Of a DNA stretch of 64,000 bases, positions 31,288-48,913 are shown in pieces. A program made the position numbers and the translations under genes. The stretch's first letter is position 1, and each line of letters begins with the position of its first letter. Below the pieces are notes generated by a model. It searched no databases, was not told the DNA's origin, and was given only the letters and a program-made list of their open reading frames with translations. Source of the DNA: Flavobacterium sp. (GTDB lineage: Bacteria > Bacteroidota > Bacteroidia > Flavobacteriales > Flavobacteriaceae). The DNA lies in assembly GCA_008501705.1 (NCBI GenBank), contig QQUG01000022.1, positions 922-64,921 on the forward strand. The letters are read 5' to 3'.

Positions 31288-33312
31288 ATGAAAAAAGATT
31301 ACACCTTCGACTTTTCATACTTAAACCGAAGATTTAACACCGCAATTGTCAGCTTTTTACTGTTTTTCATTTCTTCTGTGGCTTTGGCACAAGGGCCCGG
31401 ATGTCCTAATGTTGATGCAGGTGCCGATGTAGACCTGGACTGTGGAGTGGACTGTGTGGATCTTACTGCCAGTTTTTTACAAACCGGTGAGACCACAAGT
31501 TACGAAGTTACTTCTATCGACTATTCTCCTCCATTCCCTTTTACCGGAGGAACACCGGTATCTGTGAATACAGATGATGTCTGGTCACCTATTATACCGA
31601 TTCCTTTTGATTTTTGTTTTTTTGGGGAAACTTATTCTGAAATGATCATCGGTTCGAATGGGGTGGTTGCCTTCGATTTTACACAGTCTGATACCACACC
31701 AAATGGCTTCTGCCAATGGAGCTTCGAACCTACCGAAACTATTCCTGATCCCGTTGAATTATTTCGAACCACTATTTTTGGCGCCTATATGGATATCAAC
31801 CCAGCCGTAACCGGTTCGGGTCAGATTAATTTCGAAGTATTCGGTACTGCGCCCTGCCGAACCATGGTTATCAATTTTCCTGATGTGCCGTATTTCAGCT
31901 GCAACAACCTTATTATGACCTCTCAGATCGTGATGTATGAAACAACCAATGTGATAGAGGTATATATCGAAGAACGTTCAGACCAATGTTCCGGTTGGAA
32001 TGACGGCCTTGCCATCATTGGTATTCAGAACCAGGACGGAACAGTTGGTTTTACACCTCCGGGAAGAAATACAGGAAACTGGTCTGCAACACAAGAAGCA
32101 TGGAGATTTACTCCTAACGGAACTTCAAATGTTGATTTCTCCTGGCTGGACGCGAGCGGGACAGTGTTGGGAACAGATCCTACTTTAAATGTTTGTCCTA
32201 CAGACCCTGTAACCGAATATACCGCGCAAGCGATCTATACCAATTGTAACGGTGATGTGATCACAGAAACAGATACGGTTACCGTAACCAAAGTTGCTTC
32301 TTTTACAGTAGACCTTGGTGAAGATCAGCAATTCTGCGATGTTGCATCATACGATATCACTGCCGATGTTCAGGGGATCGATCCAGCCCAGGCCACCTAC
32401 CTGTGGAATACTGGAGCCACTACGCAGACCATCACAGTCACTCAAACAGGAACCTATACCTGTGAAGTTACCTTCGACACCTGTACATTGATGGATAGTG
32501 TGGATATAGAATTTAATGAGGATCCCGATATCGATCTTGGTCCCGATTTCGAAACTTGTTTTGAAAACCCGGTTGTCCTGGACGCTTCTCCTTCTAATTA
32601 TGATCCCGCTTTGGCCACCTACGAGTGGAGTCTGGATGGGGTAGTAATCGCCGGAGCAACAAGCCCTACCTTAACGGTAGTTGTGGGCGGAACGTATTCG
32701 GTATTTGTAACTGTGGGTATATGCTCGAGTAATGATACTATAGTGATCTCTCCAAGGAGTGATCTGGAAGTTTCTCTAGGAGATGATTTTAAATCCTGTC
32801 CAAATGAACCTCAAACCCTTACGGCGGTTACCAGTGAAACAGATGTTACCTTCGAATGGTTGCTGAATGGTGATACTATAGAAGGAGAGACAAGCAACAC
32901 TTTGGAAGTAATGCTTGAGGAAGGTGTTATGGGAACACAAACCTATACGGTGATCATCACTAAAGGGGAGTGTACCGGAACAGACGATCTTAATATTGAA
33001 ACCTACGATGTTGGAAATTGTGTGATCTCTCAAGGTATTTCACCTAATGGGTCTCCGGGCTTCAATGACGAATTGGATCTTGAATTCCTTTCAGACAGAG
33101 CAGGAGGAATTTTACAAATTCAGATATTTAACAGGCTTGGTCTGGTTGTTTATCAGAGAAGCAATTATGTGAACGAATGGGTGGGACAATCGGACGACGG
33201 AAACGAATTACCTACCGGAACATACTTCTATGTGATTGATCTGGCTTCTGAAGATCCGGTTTACGGTGCGCAGGCCACAGGGTGGATTTACCTGAATCGC
33301 GACGCCAATTAA
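31288..33312 (+). CDS. T9SS type-B (gliding-motility/CHU_C CTD) secreted surface protein with a nidogen-like N-terminal region and Ig-like repeats
   Basis: DDVWSPIIPIPFDFCFFGETY...GSNGVVAF; repeated (V/I)DLG.D...C...YLW/YEW units; CTD ISQGISPNG...FNRLG..VY...W.G...LPTGTYFYVI...GWIYLNR. Confidence 0.85.
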   Translation: MKKDYTFDFSYLNRRFNTAIVSFLLFFISSVALAQGPGCPNVDAGADVDLDCGVDCVDLTASFLQTGETTSYEVTSIDYSPPFPFTGGTPVSVNTDDVWSPIIPIPFDFCFFGETYSEMIIGSNGVVAFDFTQSDTTPNGFCQWSFEPTETIPDPVELFRTTIFGAYMDINPAVTGSGQINFEVFGTAPCRTMVINFPDVPYFSCNNLIMTSQIVMYETTNVIEVYIEERSDQCSGWNDGLAIIGIQNQDGTVGFTPPGRNTGNWSATQEAWRFTPNGTSNVDFSWLDASGTVLGTDPTLNVCPTDPVTEYTAQAIYTNCNGDVITETDTVTVTKVASFTVDLGEDQQFCDVASYDITADVQGIDPAQATYLWNTGATTQTITVTQTGTYTCEVTFDTCTLMDSVDIEFNEDPDIDLGPDFETCFENPVVLDASPSNYDPALATYEWSLDGVVIAGATSPTLTVVVGGTYSVFVTVGICSSNDTIVISPRSDLEVSLGDDFKSCPNEPQTLTAVTSETDVTFEWLLNGDTIEGETSNTLEVMLEEGVMGTQTYTVIITKGECTGTDDLNIETYDVGNCVISQGISPNGSPGFNDELDLEFLSDRAGGILQIQIFNRLGLVVYQRSNYVNEWVGQSDDGNELPTGTYFYVIDLASEDPVYGAQATGWIYLNRDAN

Positions 33313-33333
33313 GCTCAAAGACAACAATCACTT

Positions 33334-35445
33334 ATGAAAAAACTAATCACATGTGCATCCTTATTGGTGAGTGCTTTAACTTTCGCACAATCCATCTCGG
33401 TTAATGACCCTGCCGATCCTCAAAGTGCTTTTACAGCCGAAGAATTGATACAGGAGGTGCTCGTTAGCGGATCGTCATGTGTGGAAATTGAACTCACTAA
33501 CCTTGCCGAAAATCCGGACGGTGTTGGTAACATTGCCGAGCAAAGCTGGGGGTATTTTCAGAATAATGGAGGCACCTTCCCATTCGAGGAAGGGATCATT
33601 TTATCTTCAGGATTTGCGGTAAGTGCAGAAGGCCCTAATTCCGAAACAGGCACGTCCGACGGTGGGCTGAACTGGCCTGGTGATGTCGACCTAAAAGCAC
33701 TGCTGGACAATCAGTACGGAACAAATGTAGACACCAACAATGCCACGGTTTTCGAATTTACCTTTGTATCCAGTCTGGATGAAGCGACCTTCGAATTTAT
33801 ATTCGCTTCCGAAGAATATGAAAATCAATGGGAATGCAGCGATGATTTTCGCGATGGTTTCGCCTTCCTCATAAAAGGCCCGGGCATTCCAAATGTCTCC
33901 GGAGCTCCCTTTGGCGGGACGAATGTAGCTGCCGTTCCCGGTTCTAATAATGTCCCGGTTAGTACGGCCTCTATCCATAGCGATACCTTCTTATGTGGTT
34001 TCGAAATACTGGGAACGAATTACTTTCCGGACCTCTACGTTACAAATTCGAATCCGCCAACCAATGAAATTGAATTCGACGGACTTACAGTAACCTTAAC
34101 AACTGCTACTATAGATATTATTCCCAATGAAGTTTATACCATCAAAATGGTTTTGGCAGACCGGGGAGATACCGCCTTCGATTCGGCTGTATTTTTAAAA
34201 GCAGGAAGTTTCAATATTGGAAATGTAGATCTGGGAGATGACATCCTACTGGGAGACCCCGAAGCCCAATGCGAGGGAGAAATAATTACCCTGGATGCAG
34301 GTGATAATCCGGACGCAGATTATCAATGGTTTAAAGATGGGGTAGCCATCCCCGGTGCGACCAATCAAACCCTGGATATTTCGGAAACAGGACTGTACAG
34401 AGTAGAACTTACCTTCGCGGCTACACCCGAATGTATAGTAAGTGATGAGATCCTAGTGGAATTCTTCACGGTTCCGGAATTCGATCTTGGCGATGACAGC
34501 CTGATTTGCGATAAAGAAATTATTACCCTGGACGCCACTCCTACCAACTCCAGTGAGCTAACAGGTATTTCATATAAATGGTTCAGAGATGAAGTAGAGA
34601 TCCCGGGTGAAATAACCGCCACCCTGGACGTTTCAGAAACCGGCCAATACGCCGCCGAAGTAACAGGAAACGGATGTGTGATCAGCGATTCTGTTTTTAT
34701 CGAGCTGGTTTCATTTACCGTAGATATAGGAGACTTTGTTGAGCCCTGCGGTGACAGTTCGTTCGAGATCGTACCTATTATTGTTGGTGCAGATCCTTCG
34801 GGAGCATCGTATCTGTGGAGTACTGGAGAAACAACTCCTACGATCACTGTAACAGCGGATGGGGTATATAGTGTGGAAGTAACTATTGATGGTTGTACAG
34901 AGTTTGACGATGTTACCATTAATTTCAGAACACTGCCGGAAATAGAGCTGGGTGAGGATATTGTAAAGTGCGCCCAGGAAGTTCGCATATTAACAGCAAC
35001 TCCTATAAACGCGGGTGGTTCGACCTTTACTTATACCTGGTACCGGGATGGTGGGGAAATAGAAGGTGAGATTTCAGAAACCCTTGAAGTGACCGAAGAA
35101 GGAATCTATACTGTGGAAGTAAATGACGACGGATGTATTGGCACCGACAGTATAAATGTGCAATTCTATGCCAATGAAAATTGTGTGATAACCCAGGGGA
35201 TCTCCCCCAATGGGGACAACATGAACGATACGCTGGACCTGGAATTCCTGAACGACCGTTCCGGAATCGTAAAATTATCCATTTACAACAGGCTGGGATT
35301 ATTAGTTTATGAAAAAGAACAGTATGTGAACGAATGGATGGGACAAACAGATGATGGTTCCGAACTTCCTGTAGGCACTTATTTCTATACGATCGAATTA
35401 CAAACCGAAGAACCGCTAAGCGGTTGGATATATTTAAACAGATAA
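33334..35445 (+). CDS. T9SS type-B secreted protein with an N-terminal choice-of-anchor L domain and Ig-like repeats
   Basis: FEEGIILSSG, FEFIFASEEY, DGFAFLI, FDGLT..L, MVLADRGD.AFDSAVFL (choice-of-anchor L); CTD ITQGISPNGD...YNRLG...LPVGTYFY...GWIYLNR. Confidence 0.87.
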   Translation: MKKLITCASLLVSALTFAQSISVNDPADPQSAFTAEELIQEVLVSGSSCVEIELTNLAENPDGVGNIAEQSWGYFQNNGGTFPFEEGIILSSGFAVSAEGPNSETGTSDGGLNWPGDVDLKALLDNQYGTNVDTNNATVFEFTFVSSLDEATFEFIFASEEYENQWECSDDFRDGFAFLIKGPGIPNVSGAPFGGTNVAAVPGSNNVPVSTASIHSDTFLCGFEILGTNYFPDLYVTNSNPPTNEIEFDGLTVTLTTATIDIIPNEVYTIKMVLADRGDTAFDSAVFLKAGSFNIGNVDLGDDILLGDPEAQCEGEIITLDAGDNPDADYQWFKDGVAIPGATNQTLDISETGLYRVELTFAATPECIVSDEILVEFFTVPEFDLGDDSLICDKEIITLDATPTNSSELTGISYKWFRDEVEIPGEITATLDVSETGQYAAEVTGNGCVISDSVFIELVSFTVDIGDFVEPCGDSSFEIVPIIVGADPSGASYLWSTGETTPTITVTADGVYSVEVTIDGCTEFDDVTINFRTLPEIELGEDIVKCAQEVRILTATPINAGGSTFTYTWYRDGGEIEGEISETLEVTEEGIYTVEVNDDGCIGTDSINVQFYANENCVITQGISPNGDNMNDTLDLEFLNDRSGIVKLSIYNRLGLLVYEKEQYVNEWMGQTDDGSELPVGTYFYTIELQTEEPLSGWIYLNR

Positions 35446-35467
35446 CAACCAATAATAACTAATTATA

Positions 35468-36382
35468 ATGAAAAAACTGTCGCTATTAGTACTCTTACTA
35501 GCTATACTGAGCACCGAATTTATTACGGCGCAACAAGACCCGCAGTATACGCAATACATGTACAATATGAACGTGGTAAACCCTGCCTACGCAGGTTCTA
35601 AAGAAAGCCTTTCCCTTACCGCCTTATACAGGAAGCAATGGTCTGGTTTCGATGGAGCTCCTGAGACATTTACCTTCTCGGCTCACACTCCCTTTGGAGA
35701 CAAAGTAGGTTTAGGATTATCTGCGATCAAGGATGAGCTCGGGCCTGTGAGTGAAACTAACGTATATGCCGATTTCTCTTACACCCTGGAAATTGGTGGT
35801 AACACTAAGGTTGCTTTGGGTATTAAAGCAGGTGCTACCTTTCACGATGTTGGTTTAACAGATCTCGAACTGCAGGATCCTAACGATCCTTTCTTTTCAC
35901 AGGACATTAGCAGTACATATCCCAATGTAGGTGCCGGAGCCTTTTTATATGGCGACAATTTTTATGTAGGCCTTTCGGTACCGAACTTACTTAATTCTGT
36001 TCACCTTGATGAGAACGGCTTGAAGTATGGTTCTGAAACCAATCATTATTTCGCAACTGCCGGATACGTTTTCCAGGTTTCGGAAAATGTAAAACTAAAA
36101 CCCTCAGTAATGGTTAAGTCGGCTTTCGATGCTCCTGTTTCCTTCGACGGAAACCTTAATGCACTCTTCTTTGAGAAATTCGAGATTGGTGCTTCATACC
36201 GATTAGACGATTCGTTCAGTGGCCTTGTCGGGTTCCAGGTTACTGAAAATATCCGGGTTGGATATGCTTACGACTATATAACATCTGATCTTGATGCCGT
36301 GGCAGATGCTTCACATGAAGTGATCTTGACCTTCGATCTGTTCTTTAATAAACGAACACTACGCTCACCGAGATACTTCTAA
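35468..36382 (+). CDS. PorP/SprF family T9SS outer-membrane barrel
   Basis: AQQDPQYTQYMYN...NPAYAG, YRKQWSG..GAP, GASYR and GYAYD...SHE; directly follows the type-B CTD genes. Confidence 0.92.
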   Translation: MKKLSLLVLLLAILSTEFITAQQDPQYTQYMYNMNVVNPAYAGSKESLSLTALYRKQWSGFDGAPETFTFSAHTPFGDKVGLGLSAIKDELGPVSETNVYADFSYTLEIGGNTKVALGIKAGATFHDVGLTDLELQDPNDPFFSQDISSTYPNVGAGAFLYGDNFYVGLSVPNLLNSVHLDENGLKYGSETNHYFATAGYVFQVSENVKLKPSVMVKSAFDAPVSFDGNLNALFFEKFEIGASYRLDDSFSGLVGFQVTENIRVGYAYDYITSDLDAVADASHEVILTFDLFFNKRTLRSPRYF

Positions 36383-36407
36383 TCACTAAAATCTAAGTTC
36401 AGTTACG

Positions 36408-38303
36408 ATGAAAAAATTATTTACATTCCTTCTAATCATCGCGGTAAGCACAACAGTGACAACCGCTCAAAATAAAGACACTAAAAAGGCCGACCAGCTG
36501 TATGCGCGCTATCAGTACACCGATGCTGCTGCAGCCTATCAGAAATTACTTAAAAAAGGTAAAGGCAGCCGCTATGTGTTTCAGCAACTAGGTAATAGTT
36601 ACTACTTTATTAACGATACCAAAAAAGCCGAAACCTATTACAGACGAGTGGTTAAGGGCAGGAACCTTAATCCGGAGGTTGTCTACAATTATGCACAGTC
36701 TCTGAAAGCCAACGGGAAATTTTCTGAACACAACACCTGGATGCAAAAATACGCCGAATTAAAACCTAACGATTCGCGCGCCAGGGAGTTTATGAAAAAC
36801 CCTAATTACATCCCGTTGATCATGGACGAAGTTCAACGATGGGAGGCCAAAAATCTGGAAGAGATCAATTCCGAATACTCCGATTTTGGGTCGTTCGTTA
36901 TGGGAAAAGAATTCTATTTTGCCTCCAGCCGTAACACCAGTCGTAAAAAATACGGATGGAACGAAGAGCCATACCTGGATATATACAAGGCTCAGAACGT
37001 AGGGGGCACCATTAAAAATGCCACCTTGTTGGAAGCCGGTGATGTGAATACAAAATTTCACGAAGGTACCGTTGCCATTACTGCAGACGGCAAGCGTATG
37101 TACTTCGACAGGAACGATTACTACCAGGGCGATTACGATAAGAGTGAAGAAGGTGTTAACCACATCAATCTATACTACGCCGAATTGATCGACGGCCAGT
37201 GGAAAGGCGTACAGTCTGTGCCATGGAACAGCAACGAATATTCAGTACAGCATCCGGCACTTAGCCCCGACGGGAATACCCTGTATTTCGCAAGTGATAT
37301 GCCGGGCGGCCAGGGAATGAGTGATATTTACAAAGTTACCGTGAATAAGGATGGTACTTTTGGTACACCTGAAAACATGGGCAGCGTTGTAAACACCGAA
37401 GGTCGGGAAGGTTTTCCATTTGTAGACAGTAATGGTTCTCTTTATTTCTCCAGTGATGGTCACCTGGGTATTGGATTGCTGGATGTATTTATGGTTCCCA
37501 TTACCCGTAGCGGGAATATGGAAGTGGTGAATATGGGTAAAGGTGTAAATAGTTCCAGTGACGATTTTGCCTTTGTATTCGACCCGGTAACTATGACCGG
37601 TTATGTGTCTTCCAACAGAGAAGGCGGAAAAGGAGGAGACGATATCTATGCGGTTAAAGAGCTTGAGATCGCCTGTGAAGTAACTTACAACGTAACTGTA
37701 CTTAACGAATATACCGATGGTCCTATTTCGGGAGCACGTGTAGATATGTACGACGAATTTGAAAACAACCTGAGTTCGCGAACCACCGGAGAAAATGGCA
37801 CAACAAAATTCACCGCCGAATGTGATAAGGGACATGTATTACAAGGGATCATGAAGGATTTCGAGAGCAATGCTGTTGTTGTTGAAGCCGCCAATAATAC
37901 CGAAGTTGATGTGGTGATCAGGCTGCGTCCGATAGAAGAGATCATCGTAGATGACCGGGTGGTCCTTAACCCGATCTATTTCGACCTGGATAAATCCAAT
38001 ATCAAGCCACAGGCAGCATTCGAGCTGGATAAATTAGTGGCGATCATGATGAAATACCCGAGAATGGTGATCAAAGTTGAGAGTCATACCGATAACAGAG
38101 GTAACGACGAATACAATTTAGATCTAAGTGAGCGCAGAGCACAGTCTACAGTACAATATGTGATCTCTAAAGGTGTGGATGCCTCGAGGATCAGTGGTGA
38201 AGGAAAGGGTGAGAACGATCCAAAATTCGATTGTGGAAGTAATTGTACTAAAGAACAACATGATAAGAACAGACGATCTGAGTTTATCATAGTAGAACGC
38301 TAG
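36408..38303 (+). CDS. PorE-like protein: TPR + PD40/WD40 propeller + carboxypeptidase-regulatory-like + OmpA_C
   Basis: TPR-like N-terminus; PD40 motifs HPALSPDGNTLYFASDMPGG and LYFSSDGHLG; OmpA_C IYFDLDK...SHTD.RG..YNL.LSERRA...NRRSEF. Confidence 0.9.
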   Translation: MKKLFTFLLIIAVSTTVTTAQNKDTKKADQLYARYQYTDAAAAYQKLLKKGKGSRYVFQQLGNSYYFINDTKKAETYYRRVVKGRNLNPEVVYNYAQSLKANGKFSEHNTWMQKYAELKPNDSRAREFMKNPNYIPLIMDEVQRWEAKNLEEINSEYSDFGSFVMGKEFYFASSRNTSRKKYGWNEEPYLDIYKAQNVGGTIKNATLLEAGDVNTKFHEGTVAITADGKRMYFDRNDYYQGDYDKSEEGVNHINLYYAELIDGQWKGVQSVPWNSNEYSVQHPALSPDGNTLYFASDMPGGQGMSDIYKVTVNKDGTFGTPENMGSVVNTEGREGFPFVDSNGSLYFSSDGHLGIGLLDVFMVPITRSGNMEVVNMGKGVNSSSDDFAFVFDPVTMTGYVSSNREGGKGGDDIYAVKELEIACEVTYNVTVLNEYTDGPISGARVDMYDEFENNLSSRTTGENGTTKFTAECDKGHVLQGIMKDFESNAVVVEAANNTEVDVVIRLRPIEEIIVDDRVVLNPIYFDLDKSNIKPQAAFELDKLVAIMMKYPRMVIKVESHTDNRGNDEYNLDLSERRAQSTVQYVISKGVDASRISGEGKGENDPKFDCGSNCTKEQHDKNRRSEFIIVER

Positions 38304-38369: not shown

Positions 38370-38768
38370 TTATTTTTTGGGTTCAATGATCAGGAAGACA
38401 GCTGTACTATCCCCAATGTTCAATACCTCGTGCTCCTGTATCTGATGTTTCGAAAAACTATAGCCCGTAGGCACATCTACTTCCCTTGTTCCGGTGGTGT
38501 CTTTTATTCTGAAGGTACTTCCCTTTAGGGTATATCCAAAATGAGGTGCATGGTAATGTTTCTCGTGCCCAACTCCCGGCGGAAAGGTGCATTTTAAGAC
38601 CCGTAAACTACTATCGTCCCGGATCACTTCGCAAACCTTATTCCCCTCCCAGCCTGCTTGCAGGGGATCGGGTAGAGATGGCTTATTCTCACAGCCGCTA
38701 AGTCCTGCGAGGCAGATAACTGTAGCCAAACCCGAACAAAACTTTGTATGTAGTGCAGTAGATCTCAC
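38370..38768 (-). CDS. Cupin-domain protein, probably a lipoprotein (start uncertain; GTG 38768 proposed)
   Basis: Cupin motifs GHEKHYHAPHFGY and EHEVLNIG...FLIIE. The track start (38837) overlaps the upstream gene; GTG 38768 gives a hydrophobic signal ending LSG-C. Confidence 0.7.
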   Translation of the reverse strand: MRSTALHTKFCSGLATVICLAGLSGCENKPSLPDPLQAGWEGNKVCEVIRDDSSLRVLKCTFPPGVGHEKHYHAPHFGYTLKGSTFRIKDTTGTREVDVPTGYSFSKHQIQEHEVLNIGDSTAVFLIIEPKK

Positions 38769-38790
38769 TATACGAAAGTATACAATTAAA

Positions 38791-40215
38791 TCAATTTGAG
38801 CGTATCTCGATCTCGTCCAGTTCGTAGGTTCCATCAAAGTCGGGATCTCCGCTGCCTACATATTTCCAGGCGATATGGCCGGTCCCTTCGATGCAACTTA
38901 AGTCGACATTACCGGAAAATATCCAATCCCCGAAGAAATCGTCATCCTGTACGATCACAGCACTGGGTAAAAGGTTCCAGGTAGCATTAGTGACAGACGC
39001 GGGGTCACCGTCCCAGTCATGAGAAAAAAACAGTTCCAGAAGGCTCCCATCGGCAAAGCTGTTGGAAGTTTTAAAACTGAGCGTTTCTCCTTGCTGTTCA
39101 TTAAAATTTATTTCGGGAGTGATGAGCCAGCCAATATTCTCATCATCGCCACTCATATAAGTGCCCATTCGTGCCGATATCCCCAGTGAGGCATTGGATC
39201 CATCGTCGAAATAAGCTTCCCATATTTCGGAGCCGGCTTCAGCGTAATTGGTCCAGCCATTACCTTGAATTGGCTCACCCTCCATCTGAGATTCGAAGAA
39301 TTCGCCAAATAAAATCGTATTTCCAACAGTCCCCGCAATTCCGCAATCAACCTCCAGCGGATCACAGCGATCTATCCCATCCAGCTGTATTCCGTTGAGA
39401 TCATTTACCACCAAATTGAATTCATCTCCAAAAAAATTATAGGTAAATATTCCTGTAATTGTTCCTTTCCCGGCGGCCATCTGTACAGATCTGAAATCGG
39501 CAAAGGTAGAGGTACTGAACACCATACTCGCATTTTCAACACAACTCTCCAAAGTGCGTTCCCCGTCGAACATATCGGTGGGCTCACCGGCGTAGGTAAG
39601 CGGGTTGTCACCCAGTACTTCCATACGATTGAATTGAACATCGTTTAATTGAACATAGGTGTTTATTAAGTCCTCAGATAGTTCTAAAATTAGTACAGGA
39701 GCTGGCTGGATAGCAACCACAGTGGTATCCCTGGCAACATAGTCGAACATACGAGACTCGGATATTTGGCCAATTCGGTTACCATCCCTAATCCCCACCG
39801 TAAGTTGTCCGCTGTCCATACCAACGGTTAGGCCCATAAGTTTTACATACACTTTCCGCCCGAACTCGAAACGGGAAAATAAAGGGTTAGAATCGATCTT
39901 TATCTTTAATCCGGCCGAGGGTGTGTTAGGAACGTCCTGTACAAGGATCTCTTCGAAGAAATTTCCATGTTCGTCACTTGAGATCACATAGGCTGTTATA
40001 TAAATATCTTCTTCTATGGTTAACACATCATTGCCATTATTGGCCATTTCCTGGAGTAAGGCATCCTTTAATGCTTCTATACTGATCTCCATCCCCAAGA
40101 GCTCAATATTTACGAGCTCGATCTCAGGGACATTGAACTCATCATCCGTAACACAGGAAATAATACACACGCTTAGTAGTAATAAAGTGCTTGCTATCGC
40201 TGGGAGATTTTTCAT
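38791..40215 (-). CDS. DUF5689-domain lipoprotein with a C-terminal beta-sandwich (DUF5017/choice-of-anchor-J-like)
   Basis: Lipobox IIS-C then VTDDEF; AYVISSDEHGNF, AGLKIKID and GRKVYVKL.GL (DUF5689 OB-like); C-terminal WLITPEINF...LSFKT...YELDEIEI. Confidence 0.78.
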   Translation of the reverse strand: MKNLPAIASTLLLLSVCIISCVTDDEFNVPEIELVNIELLGMEISIEALKDALLQEMANNGNDVLTIEEDIYITAYVISSDEHGNFFEEILVQDVPNTPSAGLKIKIDSNPLFSRFEFGRKVYVKLMGLTVGMDSGQLTVGIRDGNRIGQISESRMFDYVARDTTVVAIQPAPVLILELSEDLINTYVQLNDVQFNRMEVLGDNPLTYAGEPTDMFDGERTLESCVENASMVFSTSTFADFRSVQMAAGKGTITGIFTYNFFGDEFNLVVNDLNGIQLDGIDRCDPLEVDCGIAGTVGNTILFGEFFESQMEGEPIQGNGWTNYAEAGSEIWEAYFDDGSNASLGISARMGTYMSGDDENIGWLITPEINFNEQQGETLSFKTSNSFADGSLLELFFSHDWDGDPASVTNATWNLLPSAVIVQDDDFFGDWIFSGNVDLSCIEGTGHIAWKYVGSGDPDFDGTYELDEIEIRSN

Positions 40216-40235
40216 AATTTCTGAAGTTAATACGA

Positions 40236-43046
40236 TTAGAATCTTAGATACAGGTTTACATAATAGGTGGTTCCATTTCCGAAGAAATATTTATTCCCAA
40301 ACAAGGGACCGTACTTCCTGTTTCTCTCTTCCAATTGTTGTTGGAAACTTACCCTTCGAGAATCTTCAAACCCGCCTGTTCTGTACCTGCTATTAAGTAC
40401 ATTGTTGATCGACGCAAAAAGCCCGAGATAATACCCGCCAACACGCCAGGACTTTCCTCCCACCACATTCACCAGAAAATAATCATCGAGTTCTTCCTGT
40501 TTGAGCAAAGCTCGCGCCGTGTTTATATCGTAGTTTGAATATGGAAGTCCGTCGGAGTCTGTGTAGAAATCCGGCGTGCGCCTTAGATAACTAATATCAA
40601 CATAGGTGTTCGAAAAATAATTGGTTGTAATTCCGGCCCACCAAAAATTGGGGTCGCGATATTCCACACCTACCTGGGCTGCTCTCTCCGGTCCCCCTGC
40701 CACATGATAATTCTCCAGGATCACGGTTCGTTTCCCTCCAACGATTTCAATATCGTTCCCTTCCACCACTCCGTCAAGCGGGTTGCTGTCGAAATCGTCT
40801 CCAGATAAGTAAAGTAAAGGATTTGAGTTATAAATATACTGCCCCACAGATGCAGCTGCTTTTAATTTGAAGGTTGGAAATATTTTTACTTCAGCACCTA
40901 TTTCCGTCCCTATATTTCTATTGCCGATCCCGGTAACGATCTCCTGAACAAATGCGTTATTATCTTCACTCCCCAACGCATTTTGTGTAAAGTAAAAACC
41001 AATTTCTGTACGATTAGAAAGTTCATTATAAAAAGCGGATGCCCTTGCTTTAACATTGGGAGTTCGGAACAGGTAGCTTGCATCCGCCATCCTTGTATTC
41101 TCTATCGCCAGGCCATCAACGATATCATTGTTCTGACGGGGGTTAACAAAACTATTTCGTAAGCTGGGTGGGTGGGCCAGCAGGGCTGCATTCAATTCGA
41201 AAAAGTGACGTCCATTGAATTTATAGAGCCCTCCTAATTTAGCATTAAAGCCAGTAAAATTGATCGACTCACTATCTCCCAGGGAACGGTTGGATTGAGC
41301 GAAATATCCATTCTGATAAAGACCAGTTCGCTGGTAATTTACCTGGGAAACTCCACCGGCAATATATAGATTCACTCTTGACAGGTTTATCCTGGTCTGA
41401 ATAAAGGCTCTTAGGCTAGAGGCTTGAATTACATAATTATATTTATACCGCTCTCCCTCGGTTACAACCCTATCGGGATTTTGAAGATTACTTTGAATAA
41501 AATTAGTATCCTCACCAAAATGATCGATATCCAAATATCCTTGTCCGCCAAGTAGATCAGTAACTTCGGCATAATTCTCACTTCTTAGCATTCGATAACT
41601 CAACCCTCCGTCCAGACGTATGTTTTCAGACAGGCTCCCGTTGTAAATACTGCTCATGGATAGTTGAGTATCCCTGACAACATCCTCCTGAATGATATAG
41701 GCCGAAAGTCCTGCTGTTGTTTTTGTATTTGCCTCATAAAGGGAATTCCAATCAAGCTGACCCTTATTGATAAACTCCTGTTCTGCTTCGTAAGCTAATT
41801 GAAAATCAAGAGGAGTAGGGTTTGGGTTCCGAAGAAAATAACTTGGTAATCGCTGGTAATAATTTGCCAATGGGTTTCGTCTTCCGCCATAGTCCAGGCG
41901 GCTGTTCCCTATCTTCCCGCTTTGATAAGCGATATTGTTATTGATCTTGTTCCCTTCGGAAATTTTCCAATAATGATTCAACATTAGTATGGGTTCTTCA
42001 ATATACCGGATTCTACTGCTTCGTATTTTTCCATCCTGAATTCCCCAATGCGGATTATATCTGTTCCCTTTTAGGCTTTCCACTTCTTCAGTAAGCGCAG
42101 TAGAGCGGCCTCTGCGCACAGGAGTATAGATACCAACCAGATTAAGACTGTGTGCATCGTTCAATGCACGCTCAACAGCTATAAAAACCGAATTAGCCTC
42201 GTATGGAGTACCTTCTACATACCCTCTTTCCCCATATCGCCTTGATATTAATACCGAATACGACCATTTACTTCTCGTATGTCCGCTACTGTATGAAACC
42301 ATGGCTCGGCCTTCATAGCTCCTGTTTGCAAGAGCGTAAGAGATACGTCCTCCGCGTTTGTACTGAGAAGGGCGCATAAGTATATGTGTTGTACCATTTG
42401 CGCCGCCAAAATCGTAATCGCCCGGGGTAGTACCCCTGTTGTACTCAATGTTCCTCTGAAGGTCATTTAACCCGCCCCAATTACTCCATAAGGGTCTGCC
42501 CGAAGCTAACTTGTTCATCACAATCCCATTGATGAGTAACTTACTATACGCATTATCAAGCCCTCTTGGTTTGAAAAAAGTAGCGCTGAAGTCATAAGCA
42601 ACTGCATTTAGAAAAACATCCCTGGAGGCTTGTAATAATCCCGAGATATTTTGCGAACTCTCTTCCTCATTATCCAATTCGTAATCGGTTAAACTGATGA
42701 TCCCGGTTTGTTGCTCGCTCAGAGACAGATCTGCTTCCAGCAAGACCGGGTTTAGATCCACGATCTTGCCCATTGTGATAGTTATCCTTAGTTTTTTGGT
42801 TAGATAGTCATCATGAGATAATTGAATAATTTGTTCTCCGATTGGCAAATCAATATCAGAGAATATAAAATAGCCCTCGTTATCGCTTTGTACTTGCTTT
42901 ATGTGGCCCATGATCTGTATTTGAACCGAAGGGATGGCTATACCGGAATATGTGTCCAGTATCCTGCCTTTTACGACAGTAGTTTGTGAATATACCAACA
43001 CGCTCATGAGCATGAAATATGTAGCTATCAATCCCGAACACCTCAT
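40236..43046 (-). CDS. TonB-dependent receptor with an N-terminal carboxypeptidase-regulatory-like domain (non-SusC type)
   Basis: Signal peptide; KGRILD N-terminal domain; plug FKPRGLD...LINGIVMN...WSNWGGLND; amphipathic barrel strands; terminal YYVNLYLRF. Confidence 0.88.
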   Translation of the reverse strand: MRCSGLIATYFMLMSVLVYSQTTVVKGRILDTYSGIAIPSVQIQIMGHIKQVQSDNEGYFIFSDIDLPIGEQIIQLSHDDYLTKKLRITITMGKIVDLNPVLLEADLSLSEQQTGIISLTDYELDNEEESSQNISGLLQASRDVFLNAVAYDFSATFFKPRGLDNAYSKLLINGIVMNKLASGRPLWSNWGGLNDLQRNIEYNRGTTPGDYDFGGANGTTHILMRPSQYKRGGRISYALANRSYEGRAMVSYSSGHTRSKWSYSVLISRRYGERGYVEGTPYEANSVFIAVERALNDAHSLNLVGIYTPVRRGRSTALTEEVESLKGNRYNPHWGIQDGKIRSSRIRYIEEPILMLNHYWKISEGNKINNNIAYQSGKIGNSRLDYGGRRNPLANYYQRLPSYFLRNPNPTPLDFQLAYEAEQEFINKGQLDWNSLYEANTKTTAGLSAYIIQEDVVRDTQLSMSSIYNGSLSENIRLDGGLSYRMLRSENYAEVTDLLGGQGYLDIDHFGEDTNFIQSNLQNPDRVVTEGERYKYNYVIQASSLRAFIQTRINLSRVNLYIAGGVSQVNYQRTGLYQNGYFAQSNRSLGDSESINFTGFNAKLGGLYKFNGRHFFELNAALLAHPPSLRNSFVNPRQNNDIVDGLAIENTRMADASYLFRTPNVKARASAFYNELSNRTEIGFYFTQNALGSEDNNAFVQEIVTGIGNRNIGTEIGAEVKIFPTFKLKAAASVGQYIYNSNPLLYLSGDDFDSNPLDGVVEGNDIEIVGGKRTVILENYHVAGGPERAAQVGVEYRDPNFWWAGITTNYFSNTYVDISYLRRTPDFYTDSDGLPYSNYDINTARALLKQEELDDYFLVNVVGGKSWRVGGYYLGLFASINNVLNSRYRTGGFEDSRRVSFQQQLEERNRKYGPLFGNKYFFGNGTTYYVNLYLRF

Positions 43047-43311
43047 GGAAGAAAATGGTTAGTACGTATATGTTCGAACATTTACCTGAACAGTCGTAAA
43101 AACGAAGTTCCATCCGAAAAAAGATACGTTGTGTGGGAAGTACTAGAGACTGCTAGATCGAATAAAAGTATAAAAACGCACTAAGGGGTTTCCCGCTTTA
43201 CTTAGATTTTTAAATACTTATAAGTCTGATTTCATGAAAAGCATGTGTTCCCGGAATTAGTTTGTCTACATTTAAGCACTCCCCGGTATGAACTCTAAAC
43301 CCACTAACGAA

Positions 43312-44385
43312 ATGAGAATCTCATACCTTTTTTTTCTGATACTATTTAACTGGCCTAACCTTATCTACCCACAGGAAAACAGATCATTTAAGATCCACAC
43401 CATAGCCTTTTACAATCTTGAGAATTTGTTCGATTTTGAAGATGATCCAATTACTTTCGACAACGACAGAACTCCGGAAGGTAAAGATCACTGGACAGAG
43501 GACATCTATTTAAAAAAGGTTTGGAACATGGCCACAGTGATTTCTGAAATTGGAAAAGAGATAACCGGGCAATCACCGTCCATTATAGGAGTTTGTGAGA
43601 TCGAAAACCGGCGTGTATTGGAAGATCTTCTCAATGCTGGCCCCCTGCGGGAAACAGATTACAGGCTGGTTCATTTCGATTCTCCAGATCGTCGCGGCAT
43701 AGACGTTGCCCTACTTTATAAGAAATCTGTCTTTGTTCCTTCTCACTACAAGGCCGTGGAGTTATTACTTTTTGACGACCATGACAGCACAAAAAGGATT
43801 TTTACACGGGATCAACTCATTGTAAGTGGATACCTGGAGGGGGAATTGATCCATATCATTGTTAACCACTGGCCTTCCCGCAGTGGTGGTGAAGCCAGAA
43901 GTCAGTCCAAGCGTATAAAGGCCGCCAGGCTCAATAAACAGTTAATAGATTCATTATGGAGCGTCGATCCGTATGCTAAGATCATCAATATGGGTGATTT
44001 TAATGATGACCCTGTAAATGCGAGCATAAAAAGAACCTTGAAGACCACGATGAAAAAAGACACTTCACAGCTTAAAAAAATGTACAACCCAATGGAGCCT
44101 ATGTATCGAAAAGGGTTGGGCACCTTAGCCTATGCAGACGGTTGGAATCTATTCGACCAGATCATGCTTTCTTCAGAATTACTTAAAAAAGACTACAGTA
44201 CTTATCGATTCTACACGGCAGGGATCTATAATTCGCGAAAACTAATTGCCCGTGAGGGTAGATATAAAGGATATCCCTTTCGCAGTTTTACAGCAAGTGG
44301 ATTCACCGGGGGATACAGCGATCATTTCCCGGTCTTTGTGTACCTGATCAAAGAAACTGAAGCCTCAGCTACCAATACAAATTAA
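43312..44385 (+). CDS. Secreted EEP-family nuclease/phosphoesterase
   Basis: ATG 43312 (or 43288) gives a hydrophobic signal RISYLFFLILF. Motifs AFYNLENLFD, GVCEIEN, DRRGIDVALLY, VNHWPSR, MGDFND, WNLFDQI and GYSDHFPV are intact. Confidence 0.88.
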   Translation: MRISYLFFLILFNWPNLIYPQENRSFKIHTIAFYNLENLFDFEDDPITFDNDRTPEGKDHWTEDIYLKKVWNMATVISEIGKEITGQSPSIIGVCEIENRRVLEDLLNAGPLRETDYRLVHFDSPDRRGIDVALLYKKSVFVPSHYKAVELLLFDDHDSTKRIFTRDQLIVSGYLEGELIHIIVNHWPSRSGGEARSQSKRIKAARLNKQLIDSLWSVDPYAKIINMGDFNDDPVNASIKRTLKTTMKKDTSQLKKMYNPMEPMYRKGLGTLAYADGWNLFDQIMLSSELLKKDYSTYRFYTAGIYNSRKLIAREGRYKGYPFRSFTASGFTGGYSDHFPVFVYLIKETEASATNTN

Positions 44386-44873: not shown

Positions 44874-44909
44874 AAAACCGCCTCTCCTTTAAGCCGGAGA
44901 GGCGGTTTT
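44874..44909 (-). terminator. Intrinsic terminator of the TonB receptor gene
   Basis: 14-bp stem AAAACCGCCTCTCC/GGAGAGGCGGTTTT with an A7 run giving a U-tract on the minus strand. Confidence 0.88.
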
Positions 44910-44928: not shown

Positions 44929-47508
44929 TTAGAAGTTTAATCGTAAGCTTGCATTATACGTTCTTCCAACACCTAAGTAATAACCAAAAGCATCTCTCTG
45001 GTTAATATAAGCTTCGTTGAACAGGTTGTATACGTTACCTCTAAAGGTAAGACGCTGTCCACCTAAAGTAAACTTATAGGTAAGTCCGGCATCGGCTAAA
45101 GTGTAGGCTGGCAAACGTTCTGCCTGGTAGCGCTCACCCATTTGGGCAGCTTCAATTACATCATCGGCACTTACAAAACCATAAAGGTCTGTATAGATGT
45201 TGTAATCTCCGTCTACTGTAAGACCGTCGCATAATTTAACTGATAAGCCAGCACCAAAAGATGTTTGAGGTGCGTTACCTACTTTAGTTCCGGTAAGATC
45301 CAGCATACCATCGGTAACGATAAACTCACTGGTATCATCGTTCTGTCTTGTAAATGGAGTTTCTCCATCAAACTTCCAGTTACCGATAGATCCGTAACCT
45401 CGTAGTCTCCATGCCCCGTAGTTTGGACGGTATTCGAAATCGAATTCCACACCCTGGTGAAGCTGAGTTACATCGGTAAATCTATCGGTATAGAATACAG
45501 AGTTTTTAGGGTCTGAATTGTCTTCACCTCCGGCAGAGATAAATCTATTACCCCATTCGGTACGGTATACATCCACATTCACTCGAAGATTGCTGTTTTC
45601 GAAACGGTAACCTGCTTCCAGTCCCAGGATCTCTTCATTGTCAACTTCAGGCATAGCAAGATCGTTAGAACCACGAACGTCTCTGAAAATGTTATCCAGG
45701 AATGGCTGACGTGAGAACTGACCTGCATTTGCAAAGATCGCATGCTCCTCGGTAATGTTATATGAGGCCCCTCCTTTGATGTTATAACCGGTTTTATTTA
45801 CTTTTTCAGATTTACCGGCATTTGCCACGTCGAAACGCTCTTCTCTCTGGAAAGACTGGGTAGAAAATGCACCCTGAACAAAGATCGAGAACTTATCGGT
45901 AGCGTATTCCACCTGACCAAAACCACCTAAGTAGTTGATGTCTTCAGAGTAGTCGTAATCTATACGATCTCCCTCTTCGGCAGAATCGAATAAGGTACTC
46001 CATGGATCGGCTTCAAATTCGTTCATAAAGATCTGTCCGTTCTCTTCCAATCCGGTAAGCCCAAGCAGGTCGTTTACTTGTCTGAAGTGATCTCCGTGAT
46101 ATAGTCTACCATCGAAACCTGCATTGATGTTCCAGTTTTCACCAGCTTCAAGGTTTAAACTAGAAAGCAGTCCGTACCAGTTGTGGTTGTTCATAGATGA
46201 TCTGCGGATACGTGCATCGCTAAAGGCTCCAACACCGTTAGCATCTGCGATATCCATATTGTTTTGAACGATCTGATCGAAATCGATCTCACCGTTGATA
46301 CCTAATCGAACACGGCTTCCACGTCCGTACATTCCTGTTCCACCACCACGGCCCCAAGAGGCATAGGCTACAGTAGAAAGGTCTGCATTGTCGCTAATGG
46401 TGTAATCCCAGTTAAGGTTTGCAACCGGCTTGTGATAGAAGTTTCTTCTTTCAGTATAGCGTTCTCCTTCTAAGAAACCTGTGTTTCCGTTGTATTTCTC
46501 CCCGTAAAGCTCGTAGGTGTCCAGACTGTTTGAGAAATTCTGGTCGTGCCATTGTGGCGCACCTGTGATAAGGAAGTTAAATGCGTGAGTTTCGTTGGGC
46601 TTATAACCAACAGAGAACAAATAGTTTTGTCCTTGTCCTGCAGTACCAATAGCATATTTTCTATGTGCTTGCCAGTGGTCTACTAATACAGAGAAAGCCC
46701 AACCGCTGTCGCTAAGACCGGTGTTATAGCTCGCCGTTCCTTTGAAGTAACTATCGTTACCTGCCAGGAATCTCACAAATCCGCCTTCACGCTGATCTGT
46801 GGTTTTAGAGATAATGTTAACTGTACCACCAACAGATGAGATAGCAAGTTTTGAGGATCCAAGACCCCTTTGGATCTGGATAGCATTGGCAACATCTGCC
46901 ATACCCGCCCAGTTAGACCAGAACATTCTACCGTCCTCAACACTGTTAATTGGCTGTCCGTTAAGTAGGAAAGCCGTGTTGCTGTCGTTAAAACCACGTA
47001 AGAAGATCTGGCTATCACCGAAACCTCCGGCCTGATTGGCAACATATACAGAAGGTGTATTTTTCATCGCCTCTGTAAATTCTACGTTACCAGCCGCTTT
47101 GGTCGTGATCTCCTGAGCGGTAATAGTAGATACTGCAACAGGTGTTTGTCTGTCGTCTGCGAGGTCAATAACCCCTGTCCCTACAATTACAACCTCACCT
47201 AAAGTAGCAGCATCGGCATCGAGGGAAACAGACCCTAAATTTGCCGAACCATTACTTAAAGTAAAAGAAATAACTCTGGTTACATACCCTAAATAGGATA
47301 TTTCAACTTGTCCCGTGTTTGATGAAACGGACAAAGTAAAGTTCCCGTCGAAGTCGGAAATAGTTCCATTACTGGTACCAACTTCAACAACGCTTGCATT
47401 GGGAAGGGGTCCTCCAAGATCAGCATCTTGTACTGTTCCTGTTACCGTTCCCTGAGAAAATGCAGTTAAACTGCCGAATAAGAAAACTAAAAGTAAAAGT
47501 TTTTTCAT
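44929..47508 (-). CDS. TonB-dependent receptor with a carboxypeptidase-regulatory-like N-terminal domain
   Basis: Signal peptide; GTISDFDGNF; plug DRQTPVAVSTI...GGFGDSQIFLRGF...NGQPIN...WSNWAG; terminal YNASLRLNF. Confidence 0.92.
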   Translation of the reverse strand: MKKLLLLVFLFGSLTAFSQGTVTGTVQDADLGGPLPNASVVEVGTSNGTISDFDGNFTLSVSSNTGQVEISYLGYVTRVISFTLSNGSANLGSVSLDADAATLGEVVIVGTGVIDLADDRQTPVAVSTITAQEITTKAAGNVEFTEAMKNTPSVYVANQAGGFGDSQIFLRGFNDSNTAFLLNGQPINSVEDGRMFWSNWAGMADVANAIQIQRGLGSSKLAISSVGGTVNIISKTTDQREGGFVRFLAGNDSYFKGTASYNTGLSDSGWAFSVLVDHWQAHRKYAIGTAGQGQNYLFSVGYKPNETHAFNFLITGAPQWHDQNFSNSLDTYELYGEKYNGNTGFLEGERYTERRNFYHKPVANLNWDYTISDNADLSTVAYASWGRGGGTGMYGRGSRVRLGINGEIDFDQIVQNNMDIADANGVGAFSDARIRRSSMNNHNWYGLLSSLNLEAGENWNINAGFDGRLYHGDHFRQVNDLLGLTGLEENGQIFMNEFEADPWSTLFDSAEEGDRIDYDYSEDINYLGGFGQVEYATDKFSIFVQGAFSTQSFQREERFDVANAGKSEKVNKTGYNIKGGASYNITEEHAIFANAGQFSRQPFLDNIFRDVRGSNDLAMPEVDNEEILGLEAGYRFENSNLRVNVDVYRTEWGNRFISAGGEDNSDPKNSVFYTDRFTDVTQLHQGVEFDFEYRPNYGAWRLRGYGSIGNWKFDGETPFTRQNDDTSEFIVTDGMLDLTGTKVGNAPQTSFGAGLSVKLCDGLTVDGDYNIYTDLYGFVSADDVIEAAQMGERYQAERLPAYTLADAGLTYKFTLGGQRLTFRGNVYNLFNEAYINQRDAFGYYLGVGRTYNASLRLNF

Positions 47509-47692: not shown

Positions 47693-48913
47693 TTAAAAAG
47701 TGATACAGTCCAGATTTTCCTTCAAAGGAGCAATAAATTGGAAGTATTCCGGCTGTAGCTGTTCCGAAAGAGGTTTGGATGCGGGAAGATCCTCTTTAAA
47801 CGGATCCACCTGTCTGCCATTCTTCCAAAATCGATAACAAACATGCGGCCCTCCGGTATTTCCGGTCATACCTACCCATCCAATCACATCGCCTTGACGA
47901 ACGAAGTCGCCTACCTTCACATTTCTGCTTTTCATATGCAGATACTGGGTAGAATAGGTGCTATTATGTTTAATTTTTACATAATTACCATTTCCTCCCC
48001 GGCGTTCAGATTTGGTCACTGTGCCATCGGCGGTGGCTAATATAGGGGTGCCGATATTGGCTGCAAAATCGGTTCCTTTATGAGGCCTTAATTTATAGCC
48101 ATAGTACTTTATCCTGCGTTTTAAATTATACCGGGATGAGATCCTGCTGAATTTTACCGGCGCTTTCAGGAATGCCCTTCTCAGGTTTTCGGCATTCTCA
48201 TCGTAAAAATCGGGAATGAAATTCACTGTATCACCCACAAAGCGGAATGCATACAGCTGTTTTCCTTTATGCTCAAAGTAAGCTGCCTTTATTTTATCAA
48301 GTCCGGCAGGAATAGTATCGTTAATGTATTTTTCGGTATAGATCACCTTAAACCTGTCTCCGGGCTGTATGGCGAAAAAGTTGATGGTCCAGGCATAAAT
48401 ATTGGCCAGTCGTTCAGACATGTACGGACTAAGATTATTTTCTTCCATGGTCTGGTACAAGGAACTGCTTATAACCCCCGAGGCCGATTTTTCTACATAA
48501 GATACAGGTTTCCTGCTGTTAAAGGAGGATATCGAATCTCTAAAATCCACCACTGCGTAGTCCACCTTGTTCTTCTCATAAATAAATACCTGAGTAGTAT
48601 TTGTACTGTCTTTGGCGTTTAGCAACACATATGGCTTTCCTACCACCATTTTTCTAACATCGAAGCTATCTTTGAATTTGGTAGCCACTTCAAAGATCTT
48701 ATCCTGGGTAACGCCATTGGCGTCGAGTATGTCGCCAAAAGTATCTCCGGGCCTTATTGTATCCCTAATTACGTTAAAATCGTTCAGGACATAGCCGTAT
48801 TCTTCTATAATTGGTGGCAGCTCTACTTCTGCTACCTCATCTTCTTCTTTTATTTCGGTGCTGCAAGCTACAAATAGCAGTATTACGGGGAGTAAATAGG
48901 TTAATTTCTTCAA
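47693..48913 (-). CDS. M23 family peptidoglycan DD-endopeptidase (MepM-like), lipoprotein
   Basis: Lipobox FVA-C; RPHKGTDFAA (HxxxD), GNGNYVKIKH, YLHM, VGMTGNTGGPHVCY. Confidence 0.85.
   Translation of the reverse strand: MKKLTYLLPVILLFVACSTEIKEEDEVAEVELPPIIEEYGYVLNDFNVIRDTIRPGDTFGDILDANGVTQDKIFEVATKFKDSFDVRKMVVGKPYVLLNAKDSTNTTQVFIYEKNKVDYAVVDFRDSISSFNSRKPVSYVEKSASGVISSSLYQTMEENNLSPYMSERLANIYAWTINFFAIQPGDRFKVIYTEKYINDTIPAGLDKIKAAYFEHKGKQLYAFRFVGDTVNFIPDFYDENAENLRRAFLKAPVKFSRISSRYNLKRRIKYYGYKLRPHKGTDFAANIGTPILATADGTVTKSERRGGNGNYVKIKHNSTYSTQYLHMKSRNVKVGDFVRQGDVIGWVGMTGNTGGPHVCYRFWKNGRQVDPFKEDLPASKPLSEQLQPEYFQFIAPLKENLDCITF

Follow-up and report, generated by a model that had tools for sequence, protein, structure and literature searches.

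Two systems that import or deplete DNA in Bacteroidota have been characterized genetically, and we compare them here with a locus of Flavobacterium sp. that encodes a TonB-dependent transporter (TBDT), a DUF5689 lipoprotein, and an enzyme of the endonuclease/exonuclease/phosphatase (EEP) superfamily. The locus lies in a stretch of 64,000 nucleotides (positions 922 to 64,921 of contig QQUG01000022.1, GenBank assembly GCA_008501705.1), hereafter the window. In Riemerella anatipestifer, RA0C_RS04915 and RA0C_RS04920 are essential for natural transformation (Huang et al. 2021, PMC8459023). The former is an outer membrane protein with a CarbopepD_reg domain and the latter combines DUF5689 with DUF5017/choice-of-anchor J. 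Adjacent homologues occur across Flavobacteriaceae, including marine genera, at 29-36% identity to Riemerella (PMC8459023). That study examined the pair for transformation, growth on DNA being outside it. A Riemerella tonBA mutant also loses transformation, independently of iron (PMC8383284).

In Bacteroides thetaiotaomicron, ddbABCDEF is required for the depletion of exogenous DNA (Sharan et al. 2025, PNAS, PMC12478041). DdbA, DdbB, and DdbF are nucleases, and DdbB degrades DNA in vitro. DdbB has a signal peptidase I (SPI) signal and was placed in the periplasm, while DdbA and DdbF have signal peptidase II (SPII) signals. DdbC and DdbD have their homologues in the Riemerella pair, which has a ddbB-like neighbour; AlphaFold3 predicts a DdbC-DdbD complex, and DdbD resembles the DNA-binding HIN domain of p202 (PMC12478041). 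A preliminary description of the window, made from its letters, had stated that similar triads of gut Bacteroidales were linked to DNA use, and this was correct (PMC12478041). In the literature searched, Huang et al. 2021 and Sharan et al. 2025 were the only publications that mention DUF5689. In the literature on flavobacterial competence and on ddbABCDEF, experimental work on the module was found only in Riemerella and Bacteroides.

We consider it very likely that the window carries the Flavobacteriaceae copy of this outer membrane DNA-import module, equivalent to ddbBCD and to RA0C_RS04915-04920 with their nuclease. The preliminary description was largely right about the core of the locus, which the literature had already described. 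Papers of 2021 and 2025 had reported the system and how widely it occurs in Flavobacteriaceae, and the window is one more ordinary member.

Results

Gene layout and family content

The open reading frame map reproduced the gene layout given in the preliminary description. The DUF5689 gene lies 20 nt 3' of the outer membrane protein gene and is followed, after a gap of 22 nt, by a gene for a cupin-like lipoprotein, all on the minus strand; the EEP gene is divergent from the outer membrane protein gene, with 241 bp between them (Table 1). The corresponding spacer in relatives has a median of 130 bp. A sigma-70 scan of the window's spacer returned 14 sites against 15.2 expected from shuffled sequence, using a model that is unfit for Bacteroidota promoters. 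Family searches of the window's proteins between about 27.9 and 50.7 kb found no SusD and no glycoside hydrolase, again as first described, and in the same interval no surface SPII nuclease of the DdbA or DdbF type and no protein of the DdbE type.

The transporter

The 936-residue outer membrane protein had been called a TonB receptor, and this identity held although Pfam matched CarbopepD_reg_2 only, with no Plug or barrel model. NCBIfam returned nothing, and the SusC/RagA model TIGR04056 did not match. We predicted the structure with AlphaFold2 (AF2) and aligned 50 homologues from related loci. The model (predicted local distance difference test, pLDDT, 80; predicted TM-score, pTM, 0.74) confirms a TBDT fold at the level of predicted structure, as the top Foldseek matches were all TBDTs (PqqU, YncD, Fiu, FecA, FhuA, and OprC; E 2e-28 to 1e-20) with target TM-scores of about 0.6-0.7 and identities of 10-12%. 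Furthermore, the first 387 residues align with a classical TBDT encoded two genes away (E 5e-28).

The protein begins with an SPI signal, cleaved before the invariant Q21, and a CarbopepD_reg domain (confident beta strands at residues 23-103 in the model). A linker leads from there to the plug, after which comes a barrel of the 22-strand type whose last residues are ...YLRF. Outer membrane barrels end in Phe, as this protein does. The stretch GIISLTDYELD, in which I117, L119, D121, and L124 each reach a conservation of 90% or more across the 50 homologues, falls inside a low-pLDDT linker (residues 109-158) and is presumably the TonB box. After this linker strand comes the most conserved stretch of the family, the plug-like SGLLQASRDVF...FF(K/R)PRGL...LINGI.MN. 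Searches of the three proteins of the triad (transporter, DUF5689 lipoprotein, and EEP enzyme) and of their family profiles against the sequences in the PDB gave nothing useful.

The DUF5689 lipoprotein

The 474-residue lipoprotein matches NF052645 ('M949_1556 family lipoprotein') end to end at 4e-61. Its score of 207 bits is below the cut-off of 475, so it belongs to a sister subfamily. The lipobox Cys21 is invariant and is followed by an acidic export signal (C-VTDDEF). Acidic residues after the lipobox Cys are the surface-exposure signal of Bacteroidota. Among 80 homologues, 70 matched the lipobox pattern, and in 69 of these 70 the Cys is followed by two or more acidic residues. The AF2 model (pLDDT 84) consists of two successive small beta-barrel units (residues 64-166 and 186-280) and then a beta-sandwich. 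When the full-length model was searched with Foldseek, only the C-terminal domain was matched, to the folds of the cleaved adhesin of gingipain, MAM, ephrin-receptor, and carbohydrate-binding module domains.

The architecture around DUF5689 varies. Some relatives have proteins of 650-730 residues, part of them with an extra DUF5017, and some related genomes contain frames of about 900 residues with two tandem DUF5689 domains; the number of matches in a single genome reaches 6. In several distant families, a pair of consecutive DUF5689 genes follows that of the transporter.

The putative EEP nuclease

The 365-residue EEP protein covers the full profile of PF19580 (1-311 of 311; E 2e-115). Its catalytic residues N43, E45, E104/E106, H194, D237, N239, D290, D345, and H346 are invariant among 46 homologues and make up the complete set expected of the family (N, E, H/Y, D-x-N, D, D-H). 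It had been described as a secreted enzyme with intact catalytic motifs; the second half of this description stands, and the extracellular role it implied probably does not. The signal is SPI-type, with probable cleavage before Q29 and no lipobox, and no C-terminal domain for the type IX secretion system (T9SS) was found. A lipobox is likewise absent from 66 of 67 orthologues. Judging from these features, the enzyme is most likely periplasmic, as DdbB is, rather than an extracellular pre-digesting enzyme.

These features bear directly on an alternative in which the locus would scavenge in the style of a polysaccharide utilization locus (PUL): an extracellular EEP enzyme would cut DNA or RNA, and the transporter and DUF5689 protein would import the oligonucleotides purely for phosphorus, nitrogen, and carbon (P, N, and C), with the cupin as a third component. 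Bt1-type ddb loci of B. thetaiotaomicron do act together with extracellular nucleases and remove DNA from the medium (PMC12478041), and the window's EEP protein carries a signal peptide as well as an intact catalytic set. However, its signal resembles that of the periplasmic DdbB and not those of DdbA or DdbF, and neither the LTD nor the Endonuclease_1 family was found anywhere in the window's genome. With no surface nuclease at the locus either, extracellular pre-digestion in the style of Bt1 is not encoded. Moreover, Pv2-type loci, which have no secreted nuclease, deplete little DNA (PMC12478041), and conservation of the system does not extend to the cupin (see below). We therefore regard this alternative as improbable. 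A separate DNA-scavenging operon of the LTD/endonuclease-I kind elsewhere in the genome was rejected, neither family being present.

A bridge to the named systems

The connection to the named proteins was made through a bridge genome from another family of the same order. Its lipoprotein passes the NF052645 cut-off at 753 bits. Upstream of the lipoprotein gene lies that of a transporter sharing 33% identity with the window's, and the EEP_3 gene there is divergent and encodes an SPI-type protein. The window's lipoprotein aligns end to end with the bridge lipoprotein at 25% identity (E 5e-27). These identities fit the published values for marine genera against Riemerella (29-36%). In a B. thetaiotaomicron control genome, PF18942 and PF19580 both matched, and from this control and the Riemerella-type bridge locus we infer that DdbB itself belongs to PF19580. 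Taken together, the bridge locus, the NF052645 match, and the families found in the control genome lead us to conclude that the window carries the Flavobacteriaceae orthologue in the minimal ddbBCD form. The preliminary description had proposed a SusD-less, PUL-like system for nucleic-acid uptake with DUF5689 as the surface partner of the transporter; for DdbC and DdbD, Sharan et al. (PMC12478041) make the same proposal.

Conservation of the triad

The synteny survey suggested in the preliminary description supported the grouping of the three genes. By the names of its homologues, the organism belongs with marine Flavobacteriaceae such as Aureitalea, Constantimarinum, Altibacter, and Aequorivita. 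A pattern scan of species-representative genomes yielded 80 marine Flavobacteriaceae loci, of which the 67 with at least 4.4 kb of upstream sequence were used for counting. The transporter gene was directly upstream of the DUF5689 gene in 66 of these 67 loci, and all 66 had the divergent EEP gene, which argues that the arrangement is not due to chance. DUF5689 was present in 185 of 201 sampled genera of the family; among good-quality genomes, 163 of 170 (~96%) have it, and it is single copy in the window's genome.

We also considered whether the adjacency has no functional meaning and the chromosome region is merely conserved by descent. Unrelated neighbours are indeed syntenic within the family as well, namely a small membrane protein, a second TBDT, an M23 peptidase, and T9SS genes. 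This explanation is nevertheless hardly credible in view of a distant sample of 20 matches from 20 other Bacteroidia families. Among the 17 of these with strong transporter matches, the full set of transporter, DUF5689 protein, and SPI-type EEP_3 was found in 14, in different surroundings, with the EEP gene changing strand and position (sometimes divergent, sometimes in the same operon) and without the window's unrelated neighbours.

Two loci in other Bacteroidia families have a strong transporter homologue and no detectable DUF5689 gene. In one of them an EEP_3 gene still lies immediately downstream of the transporter gene in the same operon.

The cupin-like gene and other neighbours

The preliminary description had counted the cupin as part of the system, a claim that did not survive comparison with other genomes. 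The Cupin_2 match of its product is weak (E 1.5e-5; 24.5-25.1 bits against a cut-off of 27.2), and NCBIfam gave no match. The likely start is a GTG at 38768; a frame from a TTG at 38837 runs into the DUF5689 gene and is the less likely alternative. A cupin occupies this position in 5 of 80 related loci, those of the five closest relatives only. It was found in 21 of 151 genera and, in 13 of the 13 genomes with both positions listed, it lies either on a different contig from DUF5689 or hundreds of kb away from it. We accordingly rejected the cupin as a system component: it is an adjacent, possibly co-transcribed, lineage-specific passenger.

Table 1. Features of the locus and its surroundings (positions are those of the window)
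Feature	Position	Strand	Basis or remark
Cupin-like lipoprotein, GTG start, lipobox LSGC	38370..38768	-	Weak Cupin_2
DdbD / RA0C_RS04920-type surface lipoprotein, 474 aa	38791..40215	-	PF18942, NF038128, lipobox
Choice-of-anchor J jelly-roll, residues 316-471	38803..39270	-	NF038128 E 1e-17
DUF5689 domain, residues 44-274	39394..40086	-	PF18942 E 1e-51
DdbC / RA0C_RS04915-type TonB-dependent transporter, 936 aa	40236..43046	-	Fold, homology, family match
Candidate TonB box GIISLTDYELD, residues 115-125	42672..42704	-	Conserved, flexible linker before plug
CarbopepD_reg-like beta-sandwich, N-terminal extension, residues 25-111	42714..42974	-	PF13715 E 3.5e-7
Divergent intergenic region, 241 bp	43047..43287	.	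Must contain promoters of both transcription units; read from sequence
DdbB-type EEP nuclease (Exo_endo_phos_3), 365 aa, predicted periplasmic	43288..44385	+	PF19580, signal type
Second Exo_endo_phos_3 paralogue, 319 aa	30208..31167	+	PF19580 E 2e-98
T9SS-related cluster	31288..38303	+	
Second type-B CTD cargo protein	33334..35445		CHU_C, choice-of-anchor L
PorP/SprF	35468..36382		
PorE/CHU_0125-like OmpA protein	36408..38303		
Multi-pass membrane protein, 147 aa	44382..44825	-	Weak COX15-CtaA match only
Terminator	44874..44909		Strong 14-bp stem
Classical orphan TBDT	44929..47508	-	CarbopepD_reg, Plug, barrel
M23 peptidase	47693..48913		

A second Exo_endo_phos_3 paralogue is encoded 7.6 kb from the locus. 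It has no signal peptide and is presumably cytoplasmic. This paralogue, about 40% identical to the exported enzyme, is also found near the locus in several relatives.

The remaining neighbours show synteny of their own. The gene for the small multi-pass membrane protein is convergent with the EEP gene, their 3' ends overlapping by 4 nt, and it holds the same position in 47 related Flavobacteriaceae loci and not in other families. Next comes a classical orphan TBDT, with a strong terminator directly 3' of its gene and an M23 peptidase gene with which it is syntenic in many relatives. We rejected the idea that this TBDT is a further transporter of the Ddb type. In other families, its nearest relatives stand beside glycogen genes, the Der GTPase, or a pair of extracytoplasmic function (ECF) sigma factor and FecR, and the apparent 'DUF5689' neighbour of one of them carries only a DUF5017 domain. 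Given these unrelated contexts, no link to DNA uptake was found. On the other side, a T9SS-related cluster adjoins the locus, and many relatives show the same synteny between it and the DUF5689 gene. It encodes two large cargo proteins with type-B C-terminal domains (CTD; CHU_C), the second also with a choice-of-anchor L domain, then PorP/SprF, and then a PorE/CHU_0125-like OmpA protein.

Discussion

How the module might work

Under the assignment to the DNA-import module, the DUF5689 lipoprotein would be flipped to the cell surface, sit as a SusD-like lid on the transporter, and capture extracellular DNA. The transporter, energized via its candidate TonB box, would move the DNA into the periplasm, where the EEP nuclease would cut or trim it. 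The products could then pass to ComEC and DprA for transformation, serve as nucleotides for P, N, and C salvage, or both. Four elements of this scheme are what we infer from the comparisons above: DNA binding by DUF5689, dependence on TonB, the periplasmic location of the nuclease, and the dominant fate of the DNA. The window's genome does encode ComEC, DprA, and a tandem helix-hairpin-helix (HhH) ComEA-like protein. Such genes are widespread and are no proof of competence.

Points against a DNA-import role

Several points weigh against assigning the locus to DNA import. Flavobacterium johnsoniae has all of the homologues and is not transformable in the laboratory (PMC8459023), and DNA is a poor sole source of C, N, or P for B. 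thetaiotaomicron (PMC12478041). Homology of the window's proteins to the named DdbB, DdbC, DdbD, and RA0C proteins was traced indirectly, through family models, the shared architecture, a bridging genome, and identity tables from the literature. As to the lipoprotein, the likeness of DUF5689 to OB and HIN folds had no match in the Foldseek search of the full-length model, and DNA binding by the domain is a prediction. The mature lipoprotein has an isoelectric point (pI) of 4.05, with 80 D+E against 20 K+R, which is odd for a non-specific DNA receptor. Its invariant basic residues are limited to R120, R162, R220, and R283. For the Weeksellaceae-type homologue, the pI is about 5.0. Finally, M949_1556 of Riemerella (M949_ being the locus tag of R. 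anatipestifer CH3) was first reported via a lipopolysaccharide (LPS) and antigenicity phenotype.

Some of these points would suit a locus with no role in nucleic acids at all, in which the pair would take up another ligand or shape the cell surface and the EEP protein would be a phosphatase or phosphodiesterase with a non-nucleic substrate, for example a phospholipid or an inositol phosphate. The strong acidity of the DUF5689 protein and the altered LPS antigenicity of the M949_1556 mutant both fit this view, as do the lipid and inositol phosphatases within the EEP superfamily and the resemblance of the lipoprotein's C-terminal domain to adhesin, MAM, and carbohydrate-binding modules. However, genetic evidence from two distant homologues of the system connects the pair with the uptake or depletion of DNA, DdbB breaks DNA down in vitro, and the pair keeps a nuclease-type partner across the class. 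We hold such a role to be very improbable, and DNA import remains our preferred reading of the locus.

Food or transformation

The preliminary description had proposed scavenging for P, N, and C. This is one plausible use of imported DNA; the other is transformation, for which the nearest characterized orthologues, those of Flavobacteriales, are required (PMC8459023). We give the two roughly equal weight, and both may apply; sequence alone cannot decide between them. That no extracellular pre-digestion is encoded leads us to lean slightly towards the import of longer DNA. Since the module is near-universal in marine Flavobacteriaceae and comes without an extracellular nuclease, it could import long DNA intact. 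On this basis we offer a broader and decidedly speculative proposal, which we think doubtful as a whole: that the module imports long DNA intact, that most marine Flavobacteriaceae are cryptically competent, that the module is the main route to organic P from dissolved DNA, and that the acidic DUF5689 protein would bind DNA via bridges of seawater Mg2+/Ca2+ rather than via a basic surface.

Dissolved DNA is a large pool of organic P and N in the sea, where Flavobacteriaceae are major consumers of polymers. Because the module occurs in ~96% of good genomes of the family, it provides a good handle on whether DNA feeds these bacteria, transforms them, or does both.

Comparison with known systems

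The Riemerella pair is the closest of the known systems. It comes from the same order (Flavobacteriales) and shares with the window the two-gene operon and the neighbouring EEP-type nuclease. In both, CarbopepD_reg is the sole annotated domain of the outer membrane barrel, both partners combine DUF5689 with choice-of-anchor J/DUF5017, and the window's genome also has ComEC, DprA, and an HhH protein. However, the window's proteins are only ~25-33% identical to Weeksellaceae-type proteins. By locus-tag numbering, ComEC is four genes away in Riemerella, whereas it is not near the locus in the window's genome. Riemerella is transformable, while no marine flavobacterium has been reported to be so.

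The ddb locus of B. thetaiotaomicron (BT3560-3563 region; PMC12478041; Bechon et al. 2022, PMC8851478) has in common with the window the core of DdbB, DdbC, and DdbD and a PUL-like logic without SusD or glycoside hydrolases. The locus has neither the surface lipoprotein nucleases DdbA and DdbF nor the additional surface protein DdbE, and in this it is comparable to the minimal ddbBCD/Riemerella form or to the Pv2 subtype, which is poor in nucleases. Its nuclease gene is divergent, whereas that of B. thetaiotaomicron is in the same operon.

More distantly, SusC/SusD PULs have in common with the window a TBDT with an N-terminal extension, a downstream surface lipoprotein, and a periplasmic hydrolase. 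Unlike them, the locus has no SusD or carbohydrate-active enzymes, its transporter does not match TIGR04056, and its hydrolase is a phosphodiesterase. The type IV pilus and ComEA of Pseudomonadota do an analogous job, taking DNA across the outer membrane for transformation or food, but their machinery is unrelated: there the DNA is drawn in by pilus retraction through a secretin, whereas the window's system would use a TonB-driven barrel with a lipoprotein lid.

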